Below, piece after piece: positions 3,806-33,057 of a DNA stretch of 64,000 nucleotides. The notes below the pieces were generated by a model that saw only the letters and a list, made by a program, of their open reading frames with translations, had not been told where the DNA came from and did no database searches. The stretch spans positions 10,261-74,260 of the forward strand of contig CAYMJR010000004.1 of assembly GCA_964391315.1 (NCBI GenBank), read 5' to 3'. Position 1 is the first letter of the stretch; the number at the start of each line of letters is the position of its first letter. Position numbers and translations under genes: made by a program. Source of the stretch: an uncultured Gammaproteobacteria bacterium. Lineage in GTDB: Bacteria > Patescibacteriota > Microgenomatia > Levybacterales > UBA12049.

Positions 3806-6274
3806 TCATTTAGTCCCGCCCAGCGGGATTATTTGAGTTTCAAAACTTTTCTTATCGAGTTTACTCAGAGAAATATTCAACATAGTGTTTGGTTTATAAA
3901 AACCTAATGCGCCAAAACTGATGAACGCTTGTGCAAGTGAATAGAAAAAGTCTCCCCAATTCCCATCAACGTACGTATTTGTTGCAATTAATGGATAATA
4001 AAAAGCAATAGCAAGATAAATGAAGGTAAAACCAATCAAAAGTGAATACATTGGTATCTTATACCTTCCTCCAAAAAAACCAAAGGATAATCGGAAAATA
4101 ACCAGAGCCAATGTCATTATAACGATAATCACAAAAGCATAAGCAAGATTAAGAAGCACTCTTGGGGAAGTAATAGAAGGACTGAGCAAACCATAATCTT
4201 TCACAAAAAATGCCAGAATAAAAAGAGAGAGTAGTCCAATGGCAAGGGGAGCTACAATAACAAATCGTTTACCTTGTTTTTTAAAAACAGAATATTTTGT
4301 TCCTGCTGCCTGCGAGAGTAGAAAAATACCAATCGCCCATCCATAAAAACATATCAGGAAAAAGAGATCACCCCATGAGGGATACGGGTGATTATTATGA
4401 AGAAAAATGCCGTATCCTGAGACAACAAAATCGCCAATTGACCAAAACAGCAATCCGCCTCCAATACAAATAAGTGCTTTCCCAAGAAAATTTTTGAAAA
4501 GTCCCCAGGTCGAGGCGATATAGAGTCCTGCAATTCCTCCAAACAAGGGAATGAAAGCTAATGAAAAATTAAAAAGATTACCCGTCCAGAAATTATCTTC
4601 TAATAAACTAATATGTAGACCGAACCAAAAGGCTAAATGAAAAACAACGTAGACAATAAGTATTTTTTGTAAGACGTTTATTTTCTTCGCTTCTTGTACA
4701 TTCTTTGCTAAAGAACGCAGCTTTTCGATTTCTTTTGTATATTGCAACTGATGCTCAAGAAGATTCCACAAATTAGTAATTGGATCCCAATACTGGAATT
4801 CATAACATTTCTTAAAGATAAAAATGATATTATCTATTTCTTGTCTAATCTCTGAAAAGAAATCGTTTCCTTCTTTTTCATAATGGGCAAGAAGCTTTTC
4901 ATAATATTCTGCTGCCCGAAGATAATCTGATGGACCAGTCATCATTTTCCTTGCAAACACTTTCAATAACGGATGGATACGATATCTATCATTTCCGGCA
5001 GTTTGAATAAAGGAAAGTCGTCGTAACTGCTCAAATACAGAAAATGTTTCTTGTACTGATATATTATTCAGAAATGCAGCAGCATTAATGGAGAAATCTT
5101 GTCCTTCAAATACCCCCAAGGAAATAAAAACGGTTTTTGCTTGGTGATCTAAGGTATTAAAAGCAAGCGTTGTTGCTTTAAAAAGATTTTTATCTTCATA
5201 ACTGTAATTTTGTAAATCAATTGATTCTAAATCAAACTTTTCCAAAGACTTATCCATTGATATATGAAACTTTTCACCATATGTTGCAATGATATGTGCT
5301 GAGATATGAGTTGCCAATGGTAAATGCCCAAGCTTTTCTCCTATTGATAGGATAGATTTCTTATATTTTTGAACCAAACTGGGATCAAAAATAGTTGCAA
5401 AAAGAGCTAACGTTTCTGTATCTGTAAAAGTATTAATTTTAATTGAGTGATAATGTGACGTACTATTATGAAAGTTTTCCTGTGACGTAATAATAACACC
5501 ACAATTTGAAGTATTAGGCAGTAAAAGCGAAATAGTATCCTGAGCGGTTACGTTATCAAAAATAAGCAGTACTTTTCTTTTAAGCAAAAGTGTTCTCACA
5601 ACAGATGCGCGTACTTCTGGGCTTTTAATCGTACTAATATTCTCCCCAAAAACATATGCGATTGAGAGGAGAATATCCATAATATTTGACGAATCAACTT
5701 TGTACCATAAGACGCCATCTGGATACTGATCACGGAGGAGATGACCAAGTTTCGTTGCAAGAGCTGTTTTCCCAACACCTGCCGGTCCATGGAGAAGAAT
5801 CACCTTTCCAAGAACAATCTCTCGTGAAACCTCATTGATAATCTCTTCCCTTCCAACAAAATGAAAGATATCACTTGGGACTTGAAACGGAACACTCGTG
5901 AAATCATTAAGCGCAAGTTCTTTAATTTCATTTTTCGTTAAGTACCCCTTTCCAGCTACATCAAAAAACTCATTTGCCTCTCGCAGCGTTTTTATTGCTC
6001 CTTTTTCAACAAAAATCTCTAAAATTTTGAGAACTAAAAGCCGATTAGTAGGAATACGTGTTCCTTTCTGCCAATGTGAAAAAATACTGTCTTCATAGTA
6101 AAAACCCTTTTCAGCTAACGCATCACCAAAAGACGCGAATGTTTCAAATTCAGCGCGAAGACGGTATTTCTTAAAAAGCTCTGCAAATCCTTTCATATCT
6201 CGTAATTGTAGCAAATCTTCTGTCAACTTTTCTGACAACCGTGTCATTCCTATTCTCATTACTGCTGAGTACAA
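3806..6274 (-). CDS. STAND-class (NB-ARC-like) P-loop NTPase with N-terminal HTH-like module and C-terminal polytopic membrane domain
   Basis: 822 aa. Residues ~30-116 form a degenerate XRE-like module (..SIFSHWQKGTRIP..). Walker A GPAGVGKT is at nt 5765-5788 and Walker B-like VLLIFDNV follows. A long helical region comes next, then about 8-10 hydrophobic helices in the last ~270 aa (nt ~3870-4640). The true start may be an internal Met (M7/M10). Confidence 0.65.
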   Translation of the reverse strand: MYSAVMRIGMTRLSEKLTEDLLQLRDMKGFAELFKKYRLRAEFETFASFGDALAEKGFYYEDSIFSHWQKGTRIPTNRLLVLKILEIFVEKGAIKTLREANEFFDVAGKGYLTKNEIKELALNDFTSVPFQVPSDIFHFVGREEIINEVSREIVLGKVILLHGPAGVGKTALATKLGHLLRDQYPDGVLWYKVDSSNIMDILLSIAYVFGENISTIKSPEVRASVVRTLLLKRKVLLIFDNVTAQDTISLLLPNTSNCGVIITSQENFHNSTSHYHSIKINTFTDTETLALFATIFDPSLVQKYKKSILSIGEKLGHLPLATHISAHIIATYGEKFHISMDKSLEKFDLESIDLQNYSYEDKNLFKATTLAFNTLDHQAKTVFISLGVFEGQDFSINAAAFLNNISVQETFSVFEQLRRLSFIQTAGNDRYRIHPLLKVFARKMMTGPSDYLRAAEYYEKLLAHYEKEGNDFFSEIRQEIDNIIFIFKKCYEFQYWDPITNLWNLLEHQLQYTKEIEKLRSLAKNVQEAKKINVLQKILIVYVVFHLAFWFGLHISLLEDNFWTGNLFNFSLAFIPLFGGIAGLYIASTWGLFKNFLGKALICIGGGLLFWSIGDFVVSGYGIFLHNNHPYPSWGDLFFLICFYGWAIGIFLLSQAAGTKYSVFKKQGKRFVIVAPLAIGLLSLFILAFFVKDYGLLSPSITSPRVLLNLAYAFVIIVIMTLALVIFRLSFGFFGGRYKIPMYSLLIGFTFIYLAIAFYYPLIATNTYVDGNWGDFFYSLAQAFISFGALGFYKPNTMLNISLSKLDKKSFETQIIPLGGTK
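3814..3828 (+). terminator. Candidate intrinsic terminator hairpin between convergent genes
   Basis: tcccgc-cca-gcggga hairpin followed by the T-rich ttatttgagttt, 28 nt after the stop of 3382..3786. It overlaps the last codons of the convergent 3806..6274 ORF. Confidence 0.35.
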
Positions 6275-26733: not shown

Positions 26734-27615
26734 GTGTCTGTGAAGCTTAGCGGCAAAGACATTGCAGAAAAAGTATACCAATCCTTACGCGTTAGAGTAG
26801 GGGAGTTACAAAAAAAAAGAATTACCCCTCACCTTGTTGTCTTTTTGATAGGAGAAAATCCCGCATCCGTTGCGTATGTTCGACAAAAACAAACCAAAGG
26901 TGAAGAAATCGGCTGCAAAGTCACAGTACTCAGATTACAGGAAAGTATCACGACAGAAGAACTTGAAAAAAAAGTAAAAGAATTAAATGACGACCCAACA
27001 GTCCATGGCATTTTGATTCAGAGACCAGTCCCTGATCATGTTGATATAGAAAAACTTGAACTTCTCACTAACCCTGAAAAAGACATCGACGGCTTCCATC
27101 CAGACTCGCCTTACACATTCCCAATCCCTATGGCAGTGATGAAAATTTTGGAAGAAGTATATTACTTAGAAAATCCAGAAACACATCATAGTTTCCAAGG
27201 AATACTACATGATGCAAACAATCACTTTTTGGAGTGGCTAAATACAAAAACTATTATCATCATTGGGAAAGGACCAACTGGCGGCGGACCAATCATGACA
27301 GAATTTAAAAAACAAAATATTCCATATCACCTTATCGATAGTAAAACAACCAATCGGGAAGAACTGCTCAAAAGTGCCGATATCATCATCAGTGCTGTTG
27401 GAAAAGAAAACGTCATCAAAGCAGAAGAACTCAAACAAGGAGCCATTCTCATTGGCGTTGGCATATTACGAGGCGCAGACGGCAAGCTCCACGGAGATTA
27501 CAATGAAGAAGACGTTGACTCAATTGCTAGTTATTACACCACAACTCCAGGAGGCGTCGGTCCTGTTAACGTCGCCATGCTTTTTGAAAACGTCCTCACC
27601 GCGGCTGAAAAATAG
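26734..27615 (+). CDS. folD: Bifunctional methylenetetrahydrofolate dehydrogenase/cyclohydrolase
   Basis: GTG start. PHLVVFLIGENPASVAYVRQK, HGILIQRPVP, TTTPGGVGPVNVAML. Confidence 0.85.
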   Translation: MSVKLSGKDIAEKVYQSLRVRVGELQKKRITPHLVVFLIGENPASVAYVRQKQTKGEEIGCKVTVLRLQESITTEELEKKVKELNDDPTVHGILIQRPVPDHVDIEKLELLTNPEKDIDGFHPDSPYTFPIPMAVMKILEEVYYLENPETHHSFQGILHDANNHFLEWLNTKTIIIIGKGPTGGGPIMTEFKKQNIPYHLIDSKTTNREELLKSADIIISAVGKENVIKAEELKQGAILIGVGILRGADGKLHGDYNEEDVDSIASYYTTTPGGVGPVNVAMLFENVLTAAEK

Positions 27616-27623
27616 CCTCAAAT

Positions 27624-27653
27624 TTGACACCACAACTTCTCTTGTGATAAGAT
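27624..27653 (+). promoter_or_regulatory. Sigma70-type promoter for the T-box leader
   Basis: TTGACA (27624-27629), an 18-nt spacer, then TAAGAT (27648-27653). The predicted TSS is near 27660. Confidence 0.5.
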
Positions 27654-27659
27654 ATATCT

Positions 27660-27923
27660 AATCTATAAAAGCATTTGAGTCTACCGCAGTAGACGAGCTG
27701 AATAGGAGAAAGCCTTAAACAAGCATTACTATTCCGGAAGTCACCCGTAAAAATATGACAAAGCGTGTCGGTAACGGAGCGCAGATAATAAGTTTAGCTT
27801 ATAACTGTAATCCCCGCAGAGGGGATTTTTTATTGGCTAAGATAAACAAGGTGGTACCGTCCTAAACCTTTGGGGCCCTTGTAAGTTTCTAAGAATTTCT
27901 TAGGAATTTACAAGGGCTTTTTT
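27660..27923 (+). promoter_or_regulatory. T-box riboswitch leader (tRNA-sensing antiterminator/terminator)
   Basis: T-box core AAGGUGGUACCG at 27848-27859. The antiterminator is CAAGG (27847-51), bulge UGGUACC (27852-58), GUCC (27859-62), loop, GGGC (27873-76), CCUUG (27877-81). A competing terminator follows. A Stem III-like hairpin is at 27809-27827. A Stem I candidate spans 27671-27764, with AGUA (27688-91) opposite GAA-GUC-A (27737-43). Confidence 0.8.
27875..27923 (+). terminator. T-box leader intrinsic terminator
   Basis: A hairpin of about 20 bp, gcccttgtaagtttctaaga / tcttaggaatttacaagggc, with two G-U pairs. It is followed by TTTTTT (27918-27923), 12 nt before the ATG at 27936. Confidence 0.8.
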
Positions 27924-27935
27924 ATTACACAACAT

Positions 27936-28436
27936 ATGTTAAATGAAACATTAATCATTAATGGAAAAACAATAAATGTACTTAGTGGGGACCAATTGTC
28001 GACTGCTGAGAGAACGAAACTTTCAGGAGACGCAAGCGTATTTCTATCAACATATCAATTTAATCATCCTGTACCTGCTGTCGAACTTGCAAATCATATG
28101 AAAACAGGACTATCCGTAGTCTATGTTGAGGCAGACAGTGGATTGTTATTGGCTCACGCATTCCGAGATCCTATTTCCGATAATTTAACAGAAATCAGAG
28201 GCTGGTTTAGTAACAGACGAGGATTGGGCGGAAGAAATATGATCTCAACTGTTTCAGAGGCGCTGGCAGACGGAGCAAAACAAGTTTTCACATCTATACA
28301 GATAGGTAATGTTGATGGTATTGATGCAATTACACGAATTGGTGGGAAAGAACTTTTCACTGCACCTTCAAAAACACCTGGCAAACAAGTAACTGTTTTT
28401 GATGTTACTAAAGCAAAAAGAAGAGGAGGCATATGA
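27936..28436 (+). CDS. GNAT-fold-like small protein (substrate unknown)
   Basis: 166 aa. NRRGLGGRNMISTVSEAL resembles GNAT motif A (R/Q-x-x-G-x-G/A). The stop overlaps the argH start (ATGA at 28433-28436). Confidence 0.4.
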   Translation: MLNETLIINGKTINVLSGDQLSTAERTKLSGDASVFLSTYQFNHPVPAVELANHMKTGLSVVYVEADSGLLLAHAFRDPISDNLTEIRGWFSNRRGLGGRNMISTVSEALADGAKQVFTSIQIGNVDGIDAITRIGGKELFTAPSKTPGKQVTVFDVTKAKRRGGI

Positions 28437-29620
28437 AACTTTGGCAAAAAAATAATCAACAACTAAATAGCTTTATTGAACACTTTGAGACAAAAGACGA
28501 TTTGCTGTGCGATCAAAAACTTATCCCATACGATGTCTATGGCTCACTCGCGCATGCAAAAATGCTCTACAAGATTAAAATCATCACAAAAACAGAATTA
28601 GCACAGCTTGAAGAAGGGCTCAAAGAAATTCTCACGCTCAATGAAGAAGGAAAATTTGCACTCGTTGCAGGTGATGAAGATATCCATACAAAAATTGAAA
28701 ATTATCTGACAGAAAAATATGGGGAAACAGGCAAAAAAATCCATACTGCCAGGTCAAGAAATGACCAGATCTTAACTGCGATGAGGCTATTTGGAAAAGC
28801 AGAAATAGAAAACATTCAAAAAGAGATAACAAATTTAATAAAAACCTTTAAAGCATTCAATAAAAAATATGGCACAATTCCTATGCCTGGGTATACGCAT
28901 ATGCAAAAAGCCATGCCAGCATCAATTGGCATGTGGACCTCTAGCTTTATCGCATCCCTTGAAGACGATAGCAAAACACTGAAAGCAGCCTATGACCTTA
29001 TGGATCAATCACCACTTGGATCAGCTGCAGGCTTTGGCGTTCATATCAAACTGGACAAACAATATACTGCAGATCTACTTAATTTTAGTAGGGTTCAGAA
29101 AAATCCTATCTATTGCCAGCAAACACGAGGCAAATTTGAAGCCGCAGTTTTGAGTGCATTTATTCAAATATTACAAACAATTAATAAATTCGCATCCGAC
29201 GTCTTACTCTTTACAACTCAAGAATTCAGTTATTTTGAAGCCTCAGGCAGTGTAATAACAGGATCAAGTATCATGCCTCAGAAGAAAAACCTTGACCTTG
29301 CAGAGCTGCTTCGAAGTAAAGTCCATCTCGTTCTCGGACATTACACACAAATTATTTCTTTGAACGCAAACCTTATCTCAGGCTACAATAGGGATTATCA
29401 GGAAAGTAAAAAGCCTTTCATGGAAAGTGTTGAAATAACAATGCAAAGCCTGCAGGCGACACAAATTTTGGTCGAAAATCTCACACCAAACAAAAAAAAA
29501 TTGAAAAATGCAATGACAGAGGAGCTTTTTGCAACAGAAGAGGCATTAAATTTAGTCTTAAAAGGTGAAAATTTTCGAAGCGCATATCAAAAAATCGGTC
29601 AGAAATATGCCAAAAAGTAA
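28433..29620 (+). CDS. argH: Argininosuccinate lyase (short form)
   Basis: HTARSRNDQ, the GYTHMQKAMP motif and the fumarate-lyase signature GSSIMPQKKN. At 395 aa it is shorter than the ~460-aa length I recall as typical. Confidence 0.9.
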   Translation: MKLWQKNNQQLNSFIEHFETKDDLLCDQKLIPYDVYGSLAHAKMLYKIKIITKTELAQLEEGLKEILTLNEEGKFALVAGDEDIHTKIENYLTEKYGETGKKIHTARSRNDQILTAMRLFGKAEIENIQKEITNLIKTFKAFNKKYGTIPMPGYTHMQKAMPASIGMWTSSFIASLEDDSKTLKAAYDLMDQSPLGSAAGFGVHIKLDKQYTADLLNFSRVQKNPIYCQQTRGKFEAAVLSAFIQILQTINKFASDVLLFTTQEFSYFEASGSVITGSSIMPQKKNLDLAELLRSKVHLVLGHYTQIISLNANLISGYNRDYQESKKPFMESVEITMQSLQATQILVENLTPNKKKLKNAMTEELFATEEALNLVLKGENFRSAYQKIGQKYAKK

Positions 29621-29629
29621 TAATTTCGA

Positions 29630-29658
29630 TTGACAAAAAATTAATTTTTCATTAAAAT
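29630..29658 (+). promoter_or_regulatory. Near-consensus sigma70 promoter upstream of argG
   Basis: TTGACA (29630-35), a 17-nt spacer, then TAAAAT (29653-58). It overlaps one copy of a 15-nt direct repeat TAATTTTTCATTAAA (29642-56; the second copy is at 29705-19). Confidence 0.55.
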
Positions 29659-29720: not shown

Positions 29721-31331
29721 ATGAATAAAAAACAAGATTACGTAAAGGTTGCATCATATGAAGGCAAAAAAGGAGAAGTTAAAAAAGTTGTCCTTCTTTA
29801 CTCCGGTGGCCTCGATACCTCAGTAATGCTCAAATGGATTCAAGATGAATACAAAGCAGAAGTTATCGCTCTCACCATTGATATTGGACAAATTGTTGAT
29901 GACCTAGATGAAATTAAGAAAAAAGCTATTAAACTTGGCGCAGTAAAAGCACTTGTTGTCGACGCAAAAGATGAATTTGCAAACGAATACATCTCAAGAG
30001 GTATTAAAGCAAATGCTAACTACCAACATCGCTACAGACTCGCAACACCACTTGGTCGACCTCTCCTTGCAAAATGGGCAGTAAAGATTGCTGCACAAGA
30101 AGGTGCGGACGCAATTGCTCACGGCTGCACAGGCCGGGGTAACGACCAAGTCCGAATTGAGGGAACAGCACTGGCACTTAATCCTGACATTAAAATTATC
30201 GCACCAGTTCGGGAATGGAGTATGGGAAGACTTGAAGAAATCGAATACGCAAAGAAGAATGGTATTCCAGTCAGTCACTCTGTTGAAAAACCTTATTCTT
30301 ATGACGACAACATGTGGGGCACATCAGGTGAAGGTGGAGAAGTAGAAAATCCAGCAATTGTCCCACCACTTGAGAAGATATTGGTGGTAAACAAACTTCC
30401 ACAAGACGCACCAAACACACCAGAAATGGTAGAACTCGAATTTGTCAAAGGTATTCCTGTTGCACTCAATGGCAAACAAATGAAGCTATCCGAACTGATT
30501 ATGACCTTGAATAAAATTGGTGCTAAACACGGTGTTGGAACCAATGTCCATATTGAAGACCGAATCATTGGTATGAAAATTCGAGATGTCTTTGAAGCGC
30601 CAGCTGCAGAAATCATCATCACAGCACATGAAAAGCTTGAGCACTATGTCTGCACTGGAATAGAAAATGAATTTAAAGCAGGGGTTGATCGCAAATGGGC
30701 ATACATGTGTTACGGTGCTCTCTGGTATGACCCGCTGATGAGCGACTTAAACGCATTTATTGACAATGTAAATCAGAAAGTAACCGGAAAAGTAAAAGTA
30801 CAGCTCTATAAAGGTGTTGCACAAGTTTTGGCTCTTGAAACACCAAACACCATCTTTGAAGAAAAACTTGCAACCTTCATGGTCTCTGAAGGACTCAACC
30901 AAAATGCATCCGCAGGATTTATTGAATTATATACACTTCCGATGAGACAGGCACAAAGAGGCGAAAAGACTGCACTTATCTCAATTGGAAAAAGAAATAA
31001 TAAAGTGAAACTCTTACCAACAATCAAGAGACTTCATGATATGGGTTACAAGCTGTATGCAACGTACAAAACACACAAGTTCTTAAAGACCAATGGAATC
31101 GAAACTATCCTTGTAAATAAAATCTCACAACCTCACTTGAAACCAAATCTTGGCGAGCTTCTTGATGCCAACAGATTTGATCTTGTTATCAATATCCCGA
31201 TGGATCGACAAGTAACACAAACAGACGGTAAACTCATTCGACAGAAAACAGTCGAACACAACGTTCCTCTTATCACCAGTGTGCCAGTAGCACAGGAGTT
31301 TATCAAAAAGCTCCAGGCAGCAAAAGTATAG
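29721..31331 (+). CDS. argG: Argininosuccinate synthase fused to a C-terminal MGS-like domain
   Basis: VVLLYSGGLDTS and AHGCTGRGNDQVR form the ArgG core (~aa 20-410). Residues ~414-536 (nt 30960-31328) align by eye to the C-terminal allosteric domain of CarB in this window (LYATYKTHKFLKTNGIE..DLVINIP vs IYATEKTFKFLNRNGIR..DLVINVV). Confidence 0.9.
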   Translation: MNKKQDYVKVASYEGKKGEVKKVVLLYSGGLDTSVMLKWIQDEYKAEVIALTIDIGQIVDDLDEIKKKAIKLGAVKALVVDAKDEFANEYISRGIKANANYQHRYRLATPLGRPLLAKWAVKIAAQEGADAIAHGCTGRGNDQVRIEGTALALNPDIKIIAPVREWSMGRLEEIEYAKKNGIPVSHSVEKPYSYDDNMWGTSGEGGEVENPAIVPPLEKILVVNKLPQDAPNTPEMVELEFVKGIPVALNGKQMKLSELIMTLNKIGAKHGVGTNVHIEDRIIGMKIRDVFEAPAAEIIITAHEKLEHYVCTGIENEFKAGVDRKWAYMCYGALWYDPLMSDLNAFIDNVNQKVTGKVKVQLYKGVAQVLALETPNTIFEEKLATFMVSEGLNQNASAGFIELYTLPMRQAQRGEKTALISIGKRNNKVKLLPTIKRLHDMGYKLYATYKTHKFLKTNGIETILVNKISQPHLKPNLGELLDANRFDLVINIPMDRQVTQTDGKLIRQKTVEHNVPLITSVPVAQEFIKKLQAAKV

Positions 31332-31332
31332 G

Positions 31333-32145
31333 ATGAAACAAAAAACCATCAAATCCGTTCTGATGTGTAAACCTCTCCATTTCTCTGTTGATTATATTAT
31401 CAATCCATGGATGAAGCTGGGAACTGTTGATACCAACAATGCTCTCAAGCAATGGGACGAGCTTGTTAAAATATATGAAAATCAAAATATAAAAGTTGAA
31501 ATTATTGAACAAGTAAAAGGCCTGCCTGATATGGTTTGGGCAACAGATCAGGGAATTATCCATAATAGTAAAGTACTACTCAGTCATTTTTGGTATCGAG
31601 AGCGCCAAAACGAAACGGATTATTATAAAGCCTGGTTTGAAAAAAAAGGTTATGAAATTGAATATTTACCACCGGGTGCGTATTTTGAAGGCAATGGCGA
31701 CTCATATTTCTGGAAGGACAAATTACTTGTTGGAGTAGGGTATAGGGCAGACGACTACTCCTGCGAAGCAGTGAGTAAAGCACTGAATATCGAAGTAGTT
31801 CCAGTCTATATAACAGACCCGAAGTTTTATCATCTTGATGTCGGATTTCTTCCCATCAATGAAGATACTGCGTTTTATTATCCAAAAGCATTTGATAGAC
31901 AGAGTAGGGAAGTACTCAAAAAATTAATTCATAATCTCATTGAATTTTCAAAAGAAGAGGCCATGGGATTTTGTGCCAATAGTATTGTTTCAGGCAACAA
32001 TGTCATTCATCAATCAGGCAATCCAACATTTACTGAGAAGCTTACTAAATTAGGTTACAATTCAATCGATGTTGATCTCTCAGAGTTTAAAAAATCTGGT
32101 GGAGGAGCACACTGTTTGACCAATATCCTTTCATATAAACAATAA
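31333..32145 (+). CDS. Guanidino-group-modifying (amidinotransferase/DDAH/arginine-deiminase-like) superfamily enzyme
   Basis: FYHLDVGF and the C-terminal catalytic-Cys context SGGGAHCLTN. The ATG is 1 nt after the argG stop. Confidence 0.6.
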   Translation: MKQKTIKSVLMCKPLHFSVDYIINPWMKLGTVDTNNALKQWDELVKIYENQNIKVEIIEQVKGLPDMVWATDQGIIHNSKVLLSHFWYRERQNETDYYKAWFEKKGYEIEYLPPGAYFEGNGDSYFWKDKLLVGVGYRADDYSCEAVSKALNIEVVPVYITDPKFYHLDVGFLPINEDTAFYYPKAFDRQSREVLKKLIHNLIEFSKEEAMGFCANSIVSGNNVIHQSGNPTFTEKLTKLGYNSIDVDLSEFKKSGGGAHCLTNILSYKQ

Positions 32146-32172: not shown

Positions 32173-33057
32173 ATGAAAAATCAAACGAAAGGAATTCTTG
32201 CACTTTTTATCCTAGCATTTGTTTTCTCCACATTCGGAGTTTTTAATCGATATCTCAGTCAAACCTTTTCACCATTTCAGGTACAATACCTGCGAGTTTT
32301 TGTCGCACTCCTTCTCACATTTTTTATCTTCTTTAAAAATCTCAATTTTAAAAAAATTATTACTCTGCCAAAAAAAGAATGGCTTATTTTAGCAATAAGA
32401 GGTGTAGGTTTCTACGCATTTGCAGGAGCATTGAATATTGAATCGTTTAATCTGACAACATACAGTAATGTTTCCTTCTTACAAGCAATTCCAACAACAG
32501 CCTTATTGGCGATGCTTTTTTTACAAGAAAAGGTAACAATAAAAAAAGTAGCGATTATTTTTCTCGCCTTTATTGGTGTACTTTTTATTTCATCCACAGA
32601 CCTCACTCACGCTTTTGTATGGGGAAAAGGAGCAATTCTTGCCCTCATTGCCGATCTTCTTTTCTCTCTTCTGTATATCTCCCGTAGATGGCATTCCAAT
32701 ATATTAAATAACCAGGAAATTACCTTTATGATTTTTGTTTTTGGTTTTATCACGCTCTTTATTTCGTCACTATTCTTTTTTGACAAAAACCTTCCCATCA
32801 CCGGATGGAGCATGACATACCTATTTGTTATCATGCTCTCTGCTGTCTTTATGGTTGCAAATCAATTTCTTGTTAATTACGGATTTCAATATGTTGAACC
32901 TTTCCTGGCAAATAATATTCTTGCACTTGAAAGCATCTTTGCACTTTGTATCGGCTTCTTTTTATATAAAGAATTCCCTTCATTCCAAGCCTTACTAGGA
33001 AGCGCTTTTATTCTCCTTAGTGTTCCACTGATGGGTAAAGCAGAAGAGAAAACTTAA
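32173..33057 (+). CDS. EamA/DMT-superfamily transporter
   Basis: 294 aa, about 10 TM helices in two EamA-like halves. Confidence 0.7.
   Translation: MKNQTKGILALFILAFVFSTFGVFNRYLSQTFSPFQVQYLRVFVALLLTFFIFFKNLNFKKIITLPKKEWLILAIRGVGFYAFAGALNIESFNLTTYSNVSFLQAIPTTALLAMLFLQEKVTIKKVAIIFLAFIGVLFISSTDLTHAFVWGKGAILALIADLLFSLLYISRRWHSNILNNQEITFMIFVFGFITLFISSLFFFDKNLPITGWSMTYLFVIMLSAVFMVANQFLVNYGFQYVEPFLANNILALESIFALCIGFFLYKEFPSFQALLGSAFILLSVPLMGKAEEKT

Follow-up and report, generated by a model that had tools for sequence, protein, structure and literature searches.

The leader that precedes the arginine genes in the stretch of DNA analysed here (64,000 nucleotides, referred to as the window) is very probably a tRNA-Arg-sensing T-box riboswitch, which attenuates transcription of ORF166-argH and probably, via read-through, of argG, a DDAH-like gene and EamA. 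It is a T-box with an ultrashort Stem I, apparently an undescribed short-stem variant that is widespread in CPR bacteria. Established in this study are the sequence elements with their covariation, the conservation of these elements 5' of argH and the correspondence between codon and pathway.

Identification of the leader

A T-box-type leader had been proposed in a first-pass annotation of this DNA, and is supported by the core, the antiterminator and the overlapping terminator, together with covariation among relatives. As judged from sequence, the leader 5' of the arginine genes is a T-box leader with a mutually exclusive antiterminator/terminator pair. The annotation was also right that the regulated genes do not encode an aaRS, the leader heading an arginine operon, and that the genome looks CPR-like: the nearest argH relatives are from Daviesbacteria, Levybacteria and "Patescibacteria group" MAGs (Patescibacteria/Microgenomates-like).

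An Rfam scan of the window at the gathering threshold gave no match, and the T-box was recovered by a permissive RF00230 scan only, with the argH leader as the sole T-box match in the window. The alignment is full length and scores 29.8 bits against a gathering score of 93, with E-values of 0.009 for the whole window and 6e-5 locally, which is above chance and below the curated threshold. In this alignment 76 Stem I model positions are deleted and 59 nt are inserted. The first-pass annotation had named the lack of an RF00230 match above gathering as grounds for rejecting a T-box, and formally this is the outcome. That criterion is misleading, however, because the CM score is lost on the truncated Stem I and the insertion, and three long-Stem-I orthologues do reach the threshold (L032, 99.6 bits; L030, 97.8 bits; L061, 93.3 bits). 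Most CPR leaders fall below the Rfam threshold and are therefore probably unannotated. Sub-threshold Srn266 and miRNA/K10 Rfam matches at 27868-27977 were dismissed as the terminator hairpin scoring by shape.

Antiterminator and terminator

27846..27882, + strand: antiterminator, with A1 pairing ACAAGG (27846-51) with CCUUGU (27877-82) and A2 pairing GUCCUAA (27859-65) with UUGGGGC (27870-76)
27875..27923, + strand: intrinsic terminator, a 20-bp stem (27875-27917) followed by U6 (27918-23)

The T-box core AAGGUGGUACCG lies at 27848-59, just as it had first been read, and AAGGUGGUACCGUC at 27848-61 agrees with the T-box sequence AGGGUGGNACCGCG at 12 of 14 positions. In the MFE fold the UGGNACC portion forms the expected 7-nt bulge (UGGUACC, 27852-58), of which UGGU (27852-55) would pair with the tRNA 3'-ACCA. 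The elements annotated earlier (CAAGG, the UGGUACC bulge, GUCC, GGGC and CCUUG) are all present, and RNAfold extends the helices and gives the antiterminator an energy of -12.7 kcal/mol. Among 34 distinct antiterminators 95.4% of A1/A2 positions are paired, with compensatory changes in 8 of 9 pairs, compared with 21-63% pairing in slid controls; this alignment was hand-extracted and, like the CM-derived alignments behind the other covariation figures, leans towards the structures tested.

The terminator is much more stable (-30.4 kcal/mol, z = -8.9), and the 3' strands of A2 and A1 are taken up again in its 5' arm. This bears out the overlap on which the first-pass annotation had based its mutually exclusive pair, a ~20-bp terminator with U6 and the antiterminator. 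The terminator ends 13 nt 5' of the start codon and involves no SD-like sequence. In 43 of 45 orthologous leaders a terminator of at least 10 bp starts 1-9 nt before the A1 3' strand.

Stem I and the specifier codon

27671..27698, + strand: Stem I domain (R1 covariance model, 119.5 bits in the window; covariation)
27685..27688, + strand: predicted specifier CGC (Arg) with the conserved purine A27688 (loop conservation, orthologue codons, Pro swap)

Stem I consists of a 6-bp helix, GUCUAC (27679-84) with GUAGAC (27689-94), capped by the apical tetraloop CGCA and set on a K-turn-like base of GC, AUUU and GA (27671-78) opposite GA and GC (27695-98). The helix is 98% paired among relatives, all six pairs show compensatory changes, and the GC/GC of the C-stem covaries too; in the K-turn GA motif several relatives show AA/AA where the window has tandem G.A pairs. 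The features of a canonical long Stem I (the specifier internal loop with its AGUA/GAA S-turn, the AG bulge and the distal elbow platform) are absent from the leader, and no sequence is left for a platform.

The specifier is predicted to be CGC-A at 27685-88, an Arg rather than a Val codon. The first-pass annotation had listed this triplet among its alternatives, and it is favoured by covariation, by the Arg codons of orthologues and by the swap seen in Pro leaders. Its other Arg alternative, AGG-A at 27705-08, sits in the 5' strand of Stem II and is not conserved. The apical loops of argH leaders are CGCA (about 15 leaders), GUCGCGN (about 13) and UCGAA/UCGAG, with AGCA in orthologue L020 where others have CGCA, and the nucleotide 3' of CGC is always a purine. 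The specifier columns of the three orthologues that pass RF00230 read CGC, AGA and CGC in the CM alignment, and other long-Stem-I argH leaders carry CGA or AGG by manual reading, all of these being Arg codons. On the 3' side the register is fixed: codon, purine, 6 nt, (G/A)A, GC.

The same fold could be read with the specifier one nucleotide later (GCA/GCG, Ala), or with an apical loop that is not a specifier at all, which we consider very unlikely. GCA/GCG is shared by the CGCA, AGCA and GUCGCG loops, and in the long-Stem-I relatives the codon stands one nucleotide closer to the K-turn GA, both of which would suit the shifted register. T-box specifiers require a following purine, however, and whilst CGC always has one, GCG is followed by A, U, C or a base-paired nucleotide; the G after CGCA is itself paired, and that pair covaries. 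The shifted register would also turn the UUUCCUG loop of Pro leader L138, which lies 5' of proB and ProRS, into CUG (Leu), and the AGA or CGA of the long-Stem-I orthologues specify Arg, not Ala.

Stem II and the IIA/B pseudoknot

27700..27734, + strand: Stem II, basal helix 27700-05 with 27729-34 and inner helix 27712-15 with 27721-24 (RF00230 alignment)
27735..27759, + strand: Stem IIA, F-box-like CCGUAA and pseudoknot IIB (covariation, permutation test)

The basal helix of Stem II is 85.7% paired, with covariation in 6 of 6 pairs, and its 5' strand is purine-rich (GAGAAAG). The canonical AGUA/GAA S-turn is not evident in Stem II, where the window has AUUA/GAG and a second subclass differs again. 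Stem IIA pairs CGG (27735-37) with CCG (27745-47) around the loop AAGUCAC and is 100% paired, CGG/CCG alternating with CAG/CUG among relatives, and the F-box-like CCGUAA occupies 27745-50. In pseudoknot IIB, GUCA (27740-43) pairs with UGAC (27756-59), and the corresponding strands in relatives include GUUGAA/UUCAAC, AUUG/CAAU, UCUG/CAGA and GGCUG/CAGCC. As the linkers are A/U-rich, an open search for the strongest pseudoknot helix was not informative, and a permutation test was used instead, which gave 82 paired nt against 64.5 +/- 3.8 (0 of 5000 permutations). A IIA/B pseudoknot with an F-box (CCGUxA), a feature of T-boxes that contain Stem II, is present. Taken as a whole, the 5' domain is 92.9% paired compared with 32-41% in slid controls, with compensatory changes in 26 of 28 pairs.

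The first-pass annotation had drawn a different structure over this region, a canonical Stem I of ~94 nt (27671-27764) that set AGUA opposite GAA-GUC-A, with GUC (Val) as the best specifier. The sensing of tRNA-Val through such a stem is now extremely improbable. Both GAAGUCA (27737-43) and AGUA (27688-91) do occur in the sequence, and the UGGU of the bulge predicts A73, which tRNA-Val usually carries. The covariation, however, resolves this stretch into the Stem I hairpin, Stem II and Stem IIA; GUC (27740-42) belongs to the loop of Stem IIA, and its pairing with 27757-59 forms part of IIB, and the triplet at its position varies freely among argH leaders (GUC, AUU, GUU, UCU, GGC, AGC and others) whilst staying complementary to the linker. 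AGUA is not conserved either, relatives having AGCG, AAUA or AGCA. Moreover, 24 of the 45 orthologous leaders have UGGC rather than UGGU, which implies G73 and would not fit tRNA-Val, and biologically there is no reason for argH to respond to valine. The annotation is corrected accordingly: the amino acid sensed would be arginine, not valine, which fits the argH-argG operon biologically.

Linker hairpin and Stem III

27763..27782, + strand: extra linker hairpin GCGUGUCGG-UAA-CGGAGCGC, with a GNRA-type loop and a near-invariant UGU/GAG internal motif
27793..27841, + strand: composite Stem III, an outer stem (27793-99 with 27835-41) and a middle helix around a GC hairpin

The linker hairpin, which the canonical T-box model lacks, lies inside the 59-nt insertion relative to RF00230 and is 100% paired, with covariation in 6 of 7 pairs. 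A Tyr leader with a long Stem I (L156, 5329-5464) has this hairpin too. It is followed by a purine-rich flank, AGAUAAUAAG (27783-92), and by Stem III, whose inner GC hairpin (27809-15 with 21-27, loop GCAGA) runs into a stretch of U at 27826-31. Stem III has a fold energy of -19.0 kcal/mol (z about -4 to -5), and about 15 of 19 relatives fold at the MFE into a single nested Stem III hairpin, with outer-stem sequences that differ entirely. An internal hairpin with a U-run was found within Stem III in 21 of 45 leaders compared with 7 of 900 shuffles. T-boxes carry Stem III, part of the discriminator, between conserved purines (RRRxG-Stem III-AA); here the 5' flank is purine-rich, of the AAUAAG/AAAGAG type, and the 3' flank contains AA.

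Three hairpins had been annotated upstream of the core, of which the one at 27809-27827 and the GUAA-capped one, which in full spans 27763-27782, were recovered. The third, a small hairpin at 27788-27802, was not supported, its 3' half sitting in the covarying outer stem that encloses 27809-27827.

A 36-codon ORF (27755-27865) with an Arg-Arg pair (CGC AGA) runs through this region, and could in principle support ribosome-mediated attenuation by a leader peptide. We regard the likelihood of this as negligible, since in 6 of 25 related leaders no ORF reaches 15 codons and those of the remaining leaders differ in start and frame, whilst the ATG falls in a pseudoknot strand that reads CGAC or AGAC in relatives, and no Shine-Dalgarno-like sequence was seen for this ORF.

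Related leaders and tRNA genes

Homologous leaders with a T-box core were found upstream of argH in at least 45 of 80 argH loci of related CPR (Microgenomates-type) genomes. The core is 70-100 nt from argH in most loci, and about 500-600 nt away where an extra ORF intervenes. The linker-hairpin motif retrieved 22 further leaders from metagenomes. In this gene-blind sample, all 4 leaders that share the architecture but carry CCC/CCU in the loop have ProRS downstream, along with proB, proC or ornithine cyclodeaminase, and CGC leaders have argH, argG or OTC downstream wherever the gene is recognisable; no association of Arg or Pro loops with the other pathway was seen in the sample. From the argH loci and the Pro and Tyr relatives, T-box regulation appears to be widespread in Microgenomates-type CPR. 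Our literature search found no paper linking T-boxes to CPR or Patescibacteria.

These relatives also bear on the possibility that the leader senses no tRNA, being instead a protein-dependent or arginine attenuator, or a decayed T-box remnant with a damping terminator. The score below the Rfam threshold, the missing elbow-binding platform and the additional conserved hairpin and internal terminator-like module would all be consistent with this. It is nonetheless an unlikely explanation, as the UGGNACC bulge and A1/A2, with the terminator that overlaps them, have been kept and covary in at least 45 genomes, and the apical triplet tracks the downstream pathway, Arg or Pro; compensatory changes in every helix would not be expected of decay. 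A tRNA-Arg sensor is the preferred reading.

No tRNA genes were found in the window, and beyond its two ends there was tRNA-Leu only. The T-box-bearing genome loci contained no tRNA-Arg gene, and the metagenome loci contained tRNA-Gln and tRNA-Glu only, with no tRNA-Arg. The only CPR tRNA-Arg seen, in L040, has the anticodon CCG and discriminator A.

Promoter and downstream genes

27624..27653, + strand: sigma-70-like promoter, -35 TTGACA (27624-29), 18-nt spacer, TG (27645-46), -10 TAAGAT (27648-53); 10/12 match
27936..28436, + strand: ORF166, first regulated gene (by position), orphan, no Pfam match
28433..29620, + strand: argH, argininosuccinate lyase, short 395-aa form (TIGR00838, 308.8 bits against a cut-off of 279.5; Pfam Lyase_1)
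29721-31331, + strand: argG-MGS fusion, co-directional (argG equivalog)
31333-32145, + strand: DDAH/arginine-dihydrolase-like gene, co-directional
32173-33057, + strand: EamA transporter gene, co-directional

A TTGACA-18-TAAGAT promoter had been annotated right after folD, and its coordinates are borne out, the folD stop being at 27615, just 5' of it. The match alone is not significant, however, as 4 consensus matches were found in 2 kb where 5.0 were expected. Similar TTGACA..TATAAT boxes lie 5' of the orthologous leaders in relatives.

ORF166 overlaps argH by 4 nt, which suggests translational coupling. It has no Pfam match even at E <= 1, a word-index search recovered only ORF166 itself, and HMMER, run in full against 1.84 billion representatives, returned 5 marginal matches, so that it has essentially no homologues. 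Comparison by hhalign with the GNATs of L019, L025 and L042 and with the L150 GNAT was not significant, a PDB profile search gave no match, and the single-sequence AlphaFold model (pLDDT 35) is unusable. The first-pass annotation had called the gene GNAT-like, a label that these searches did not confirm. At the same position relatives have either diverged small ORFs or clear GNATs, the L024 counterpart having a weak Acetyltransf_3 match (E = 1.8e-4) below the cut-off.

No terminator-like sites were found in the argH-argG gap or before the EamA start, the EamA gene itself containing one weak site. The argH-argG gap does hold a strong promoter-like site (29630-58), and because of this we only infer T-box control of argG, the DDAH-like gene and EamA.

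Comparison with known T-boxes

With the class I transcriptional T-boxes (RF00230; B. subtilis tyrS, glyQS), the leader shares the T-box sequence with its 7-nt bulge, the competition of an antiterminator with an intrinsic terminator, a codon-like Stem I specifier that fits the regulated pathway, the K-turn-like base of Stem I, Stem II, the IIA/B pseudoknot with its F-box, and Stem III with purine flanks. It differs from them in having a Stem I of 6 bp and a tetraloop, without specifier internal loop, AG bulge or distal-loop platform, and in the addition of the linker hairpin and a long composite Stem III with a terminator-like module. The tRNA-Arg sensing over an arg biosynthetic operon, rather than an aaRS gene, would be shared with T-boxes of Clostridia, where Vitreschak et al. 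in 2008 (RNA 14:717) reportedly described Arg-specific T-boxes on arginine biosynthesis genes; those leaders are reportedly canonical, with a long Stem I, and come from Firmicutes. Class II translational ileS T-boxes of Actinobacteria were reportedly the subject of work by Sherwood in 2015.

The first A2 pair is G-C in this leader, compared with the G.U wobble described as a steric sensor (PMC7583486). Class II translational T-boxes are known from ileS of Actinobacteria (M. tuberculosis, M. smegmatis, N. farcinica), are Ile-specific and act through Shine-Dalgarno sequestration; the leader shares with them a short Stem I without elbow platform and a specifier in the apical loop (PMC7583486, PMC11297988). 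Class II leaders rely on a K-turn, on Stem II and on a IIA/B pseudoknot formed by about 3 nucleotides of the loop with the linker, and the leader has a K-turn-like base, a Stem II and such a pseudoknot as well. Unlike them, the leader has a 20-bp intrinsic terminator, predicted Arg specificity, a CPR host and Pro-specific relatives, and no SD sequestrator/anti-sequestrator, the expression platform of class II, was found in it. Stem I is described as longer in transcriptional than in translational T-boxes (PMC7778990, PMC11297988). The combination of a short Stem I with a terminator, as predicted for this leader, breaks this textbook pairing of long Stem I with transcriptional and short Stem I with translational control.

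Proposed mechanism

That the leader binds tRNA, tells uncharged from charged tRNA and sets the outcome of transcription accordingly is inferred from how T-boxes are known to work. Transcription would start at the promoter at 27624-53, and a 5' decoding module would form from the ultrashort Stem I (K-turn-like base, 6 bp, loop CGC-A), Stem II and the IIA/B pseudoknot, in which the tRNA-Arg anticodon (ICG or GCG) may pair with CGC at 27685-87. The linker hairpin and the long composite Stem III would then lead to the discriminator. The 3'-ACCA of an uncharged tRNA could pair with UGGU (27852-55) and stabilise the weak antiterminator (-12.7 kcal/mol) against the stronger terminator (-30.4 kcal/mol), in which case RNA polymerase would read into the arginine genes. 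Charged tRNA-Arg would be unable to stabilise the antiterminator, and transcription would stop at the U-run at 27918-23.

More tentatively, and with slightly less than even weight, these leaders may represent a CPR-wide third T-box architecture, one that terminates transcription with a Stem I of 5-6 bp, presents the codon in an apical loop of 4-7 nt, and compensates for the lost elbow contact. The 7-nt loop G-U-CGC-G-A might mimic an anticodon loop, with a U33-like U, a triplet and an R37-like purine, and the loss of contact with the tRNA elbow might be offset by the linker hairpin (27763-82) and the Stem III module (27809-31). The hairpin and U-run of that module could act as a pause or early-termination site, buying time for slow tRNA capture. 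Such a class would serve at least Arg and Pro and would be invisible to RF00230 at the gathering threshold. The leader raises the structural question of how a tetraloop, with three nucleotides closed by a covarying pair, presents a codon to an anticodon, and a second question concerning the role of the linker hairpin and the internal terminator-like module.

CGC (Arg) leaders also head several proteins without a recognisable domain, and in this position they flag candidate arginine-related genes in organisms with poorly understood metabolism.

Identity of the leader and its relatives

The leader at 27624-27935, which the first-pass annotation had described as a T-box with a valine specifier, is very probably a tRNA-Arg-sensing T-box attenuator. 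The T-box call stood and the leader proved more than routine, whereas the valine headline was wrong. It lies in the following context:

Genes around the leader
26734-27615, folD, directly before the leader region
27936-28436, ORF166, first gene after the leader, no Pfam match; co-directional with, and overlapping, argH
28433-29620, argH; TIGR00838 308.8 bits, cut-off 279.5
29721-31331, argG-MGS fusion, in the co-directional gene string
31333-32145, DDAH/arginine-dihydrolase-like gene, in the same string
32173-33057, EamA transporter, in the same string

At gathering thresholds, no Rfam family matched anywhere in the 64-kb window. With permissive filters, the Rfam T-box model RF00230 covered 27665-27883 with its whole length (model 1-219), the sole T-box match in the window, scoring 29.8 bits and so falling below the gathering threshold of 93 (E = 6e-5 in a local search, 0.009 for the whole window). 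This low score stems from the deletion of 76 Stem I model positions and the insertion of 59 nt between Stem IIA/B and Stem III. In the alignment the Stem I base reads GC-AUUUGA ... GAGC around a small hairpin, Stem II occupies 27700-34 and Stem IIA reads CGG-AAGUCAC-CCG, which places the proposed GUC specifier in the Stem IIA loop. A match on the opposite strand to the Streptococcus sRNA Srn266 (27875-27977 (-), 36.9 bits against 63) consists of the terminator hairpin and its A/U-rich flank and is most likely a shape artefact.

As ORF166 was an orphan in homologue searches, the argH protein was used instead to fetch 80 related loci from species-representative genomes. The best matches were from Daviesbacteria, Levybacteria, Gottesmanbacteria, other Microgenomates and 'Patescibacteria group' MAGs, with DPANN archaea lower, a ranking that confirms affiliation with the candidate phyla radiation (CPR). 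The T-box core [AG][AG]GUGGNACC was present upstream of argH in 42 loci, at 70-100 nt or, with an additional small ORF in between, at ~500-600 nt. Three further loci, in which the bulge is a variant, were picked up with a covariance model (45 leaders in all). Three of the argH leaders, with a canonical long Stem I, exceed the RF00230 gathering threshold (L032, L030 and L061; 99.6, 97.8 and 93.3 bits), indicating that the window leader belongs to an orthologous series containing bona fide T-boxes. It is part of a large CPR family, Pro-specific leaders included, that RF00230 misses at its threshold.

Structure of the 5' domain and Stem III

A covariance model of the short-Stem-I 5' domain (R1; 123 positions, 28 bp) was built from 14 window-like domains and found 27 leaders among the genome loci, the window scoring 119.5 bits. 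In the R1 alignment 92.9% of cells were paired, against 70.2% when shuffled and 32–41% with slid partners; these and the other paired-cell percentages are optimistic, since the structures under test themselves served to fit or extract the alignments. The case for the fold rests instead on the variety of pair types, with compensatory changes in 26 of 28 pairs, and on the slid and permuted controls.

Elements of the 5' domain in the R1 alignment
27679-84 with 27689-94, Stem I hairpin: 98% paired; all six pairs covary, the loop-closing C-G to U-A included
Stem II base: 85.7% paired
Stem IIA: 100% paired; CGG/CCG alternates with CAG/CUG
27763-82, linker hairpin: 100% paired; no RF00230 counterpart

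In every sequence the loop of Stem IIA has its complement in the linker, forming the pseudoknot IIB (in the window 27740-43 with 27756-59, GUCA/UGAC; elsewhere GUUGAA/UUCAAC, AUUG/CAAU, UCUG/CAGA, AGUG/CACU and GGCUG/CAGCC). The summed complementarity was 82, and permuting linkers among sequences brought it down to 64.5 ± 3.8 (0 of 5000 permutations). This agrees with the published IIA/B pseudoknot, where the loop contributes about three nucleotides to the pairing with the linker (PMC11297988).

The UGU/GAG core of the linker hairpin is non-Watson-Crick and nearly invariant and its loop is mostly of GNRA type; the hairpin was also found in Pro- and Tyr-specific metagenomic leaders. Stem III forms a long hairpin of composite build, its outer stem (27793-99 with 27835-41) enclosing a GC hairpin (27809-27); among 19 relatives the outer-stem sequences are wholly different with complementarity kept, and ~15 of them have one nested hairpin as their minimum free energy fold. 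The GC-rich hairpin with its U5-7 run (27809-27831 in the window, with equivalents in L008-L058) lies 21-32 nt ahead of the T-box bulge. It was detected in 21 of the 45 leaders but in only 7 of 900 shuffled sequences, and the hairpin itself covaries, as does the outer stem around it. It resembles an intrinsic terminator or strong pause signal and may act as a pause or early-termination module. To our knowledge, neither it nor the linker hairpin has a described counterpart.

Specifier codon

The triplets found in four forms of Stem I upstream of argH are arginine codons throughout, and other long Stem I forms were manually read as CGA and AGG, likewise arginine codons.

Forms of Stem I upstream of argH
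Form A (window type): 6 bp and a CGCA tetraloop; ~15 genomes
Form B: 5 bp and a 7-nt loop G-U-CGC-G-N; ~13 genomes
Form C: pentaloops U-CGA-A or U-CGA-G
Form D: canonical long Stem I; covariance-model specifier columns CGC, AGA, CGC

The form B loop is laid out like an anticodon loop, with a U33-like U, the triplet and an R37-like purine, and forms A and B keep the same register along the 3' strand (codon, purine, 6 nt, (G/A)A, GC). An alanine reading would shift the triplet to GCG, after which the next base is A, U, C or base-paired, whereas the base after CGC is a purine in every case, which argues against the Ala register.

The decisive test came from a sample drawn blind to the genes, in which metagenomes were scanned for the linker-hairpin motif GTGTCGGNAACGGAGC and filtered with R1, giving 22 further leaders.

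Apical loops and downstream genes in the gene-blind sample
L138 1422-1525(-), L143 1094-1196(-), L144 6992-7092(-), L156 8843-8946(-), Pro-type short-Stem-I leaders: UUUCCCG or UUUCCUG; ProRS and proC-like, ornithine cyclodeaminase or proB-like genes
L098, L095, L150, L094: CGCA or GUCGCGA; argH and argG, argH, NAGS-like GNAT and argH, or ornithine carbamoyltransferase
L154, L133, L115, L141, L148, L108, L102, L104: CGCA or GUCGCGA; proteins without recognised function

No association of Arg or Pro loops with genes of the other pathway was seen in this sample. The register is fixed by L138, where CCU-G stands upstream of proB and ProRS and a +1 shift would read Leu. This codon-to-pathway match, with the loop conservation, identifies the window specifier as CGC (27685-87), followed by A27688, which the first-pass annotation had listed as an alternative. 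Its preferred GUC instead pairs with the linker in IIB; AGUA (27688-91), which it had placed opposite GUC, is the last loop base and 3' arm of Stem I and is not conserved, and neither is its other alternative, AGG-A (27705-08), within Stem II.

Eight of the 12 metagenomic Arg-type leaders precede Pfam-less proteins (575, 462, 451, 328, 293, 114, 109 and 82 aa), the first downstream proteins of L115 and L141 sharing a CWG(T/S) motif; such proteins after CGC leaders are candidates for new arginine-related functions. The argH leader of L020 (3785-3800) carries an AGCA tetraloop rather than CGCA; AGC is a Ser codon and would create an A.G mismatch with the tRNA-Arg anticodon, so that the tRNA may be a variant, the switch may be decaying or the assembly may be in error. 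A CCUA tetraloop in the same short-Stem-I architecture was found in L123 (146-265(-)), where the locus ends before the downstream gene. The L156 contig has a second leader (5329-5464(-)) with a long Stem I, UAC (Tyr) and the shared linker hairpin, preceding chorismate mutase, a putative DAHP synthase-like ORF and prephenate dehydrogenase.

Antitermination and proposed mechanism

The promoter-like site (TTGACA, 18 nt, (TG)-TAAGAT; 27624-53) and the T-box core AAGGUGGUACCG (27848-59) are present as first annotated. The minimum free energy fold of 27845-84 is likewise the proposed antiterminator (-12.7 kcal/mol; 5' to 3' ACAAGG, UGGUACC, GUCCUAA, loop ACCU, UUGGGGC, CCUUGU), and a 20-bp terminator hairpin followed by U6 (27875-27917; -30.4 kcal/mol, z = -8.9) re-uses the antiterminator 3' strands as its 5' arm. 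With both conformers permitted in folding, the terminator outcompetes the antiterminator, pointing to a default-off state, as a T-box should have.

Across 34 distinct sequences in a hand-extracted, and hence optimistic, alignment the antiterminator is 95.4% paired, with compensatory changes in eight of nine pairs, and a terminator of 10 bp or more starts 1-9 nt ahead of the 3' strand of antiterminator helix A1 in 43 of 45 leaders. The second helix, A2, has an 81-nt loop insertion in L010 (3839-3925), built from short repeats resembling GUCAUCAG/GUCGUCAG. The bulge reads UGGU in 21 leaders and UGGC in 24. Bacterial tRNA-Arg occurs with both A73 and G73, while tRNA-Val and tRNA-Ala have A73. No tRNA-Arg gene turned up in the window, its flanks or the leader-bearing loci; the only CPR tRNA-Arg encountered (L040, anticodon CCG) has discriminator A.

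Going by homology to the established T-box mechanism (PMC7583486, PMC7778990), the anticodon of uncharged tRNA-Arg would pair with CGC (27685-87) and its 3'-ACCA with UGGU (27852-55), contacts that would stabilise the antiterminator and give read-through into ORF166-argH. Ribosome-mediated attenuation through a 36-codon ORF (27755-27865) was rejected, as the ORF is not conserved.

Comparison with known T-boxes

The discriminator half of the leader is that of a standard T-box. The 5' half is like the class II ileS T-boxes of Actinobacteria in its short Stem I without an elbow-binding platform, its apical-loop specifier and, apparently, its dependence on a K-turn together with Stem II and the IIA/B pseudoknot (PMC7583486, PMC11297988). 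Those T-boxes, however, control translation through a Shine-Dalgarno sequestrator, whereas the window leader has a strong intrinsic terminator and is predicted to be a T-box that acts by terminating transcription, is specific for Arg and has an ultrashort Stem I. In published accounts Stem I is longer in transcriptional than in translational T-boxes (PMC7778990, PMC11297988), and the TBDB class II model was applied to Actinobacteria and to class-I matches with truncated Stem I (PMC7778990). Elbow contact greatly eases the first tRNA-binding step (PMC11297988); a programmed pause at Stem III could plausibly offset slower tRNA capture without it. In the literature, which was covered incompletely, no paper linking T-boxes to CPR or Patescibacteria was found.

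Downstream genes

The domain, homology and structure searches run gave no support for ORF166 being a GNAT, and the original 'GNAT-like' label is a reasonable guess from context, not a result. The same slot, between T-box and argH, holds a clear GNAT of 138-139 aa in L019 (3573-3992), L025 (2897-3313; PF00583, E = 2.7e-22) and L042 (3582-3998), and in L150 a 134-aa GNAT ORF before argH is similar to amino-acid N-acetyltransferase (NAGS) and to the NAGS domain found in bifunctional ArgH(A). Diverged small ORFs in L036 and L024 align weakly to ORF166 (24% and 17% identity), the latter with a weak Acetyltransf_3 match.

No terminator-like site was detected after argH or ahead of EamA, and one weak site lies within EamA. 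The 100-nt argH-argG gap contains a strong promoter-like site (TTGACA-17-TAAAAT, 11/12; 29630-29658), from which argG and the genes downstream may be transcribed independently of the T-box; leader control is thus no more than probable for argG, the DDAH-like gene and EamA.

The argH product is a short form (395 aa), aligning only to positions 12-388 of the 455-position TIGR00838 profile, and this form recurs throughout the CPR and DPANN matches of the argH search. The C-terminus of ArgG carries a fused MGS-like domain, in which residues 412-535 match the carbamoyl-phosphate synthase large subunit in its C-terminal region, the allosteric domain of that subunit. The fusion hints at allosteric control of argininosuccinate synthase.
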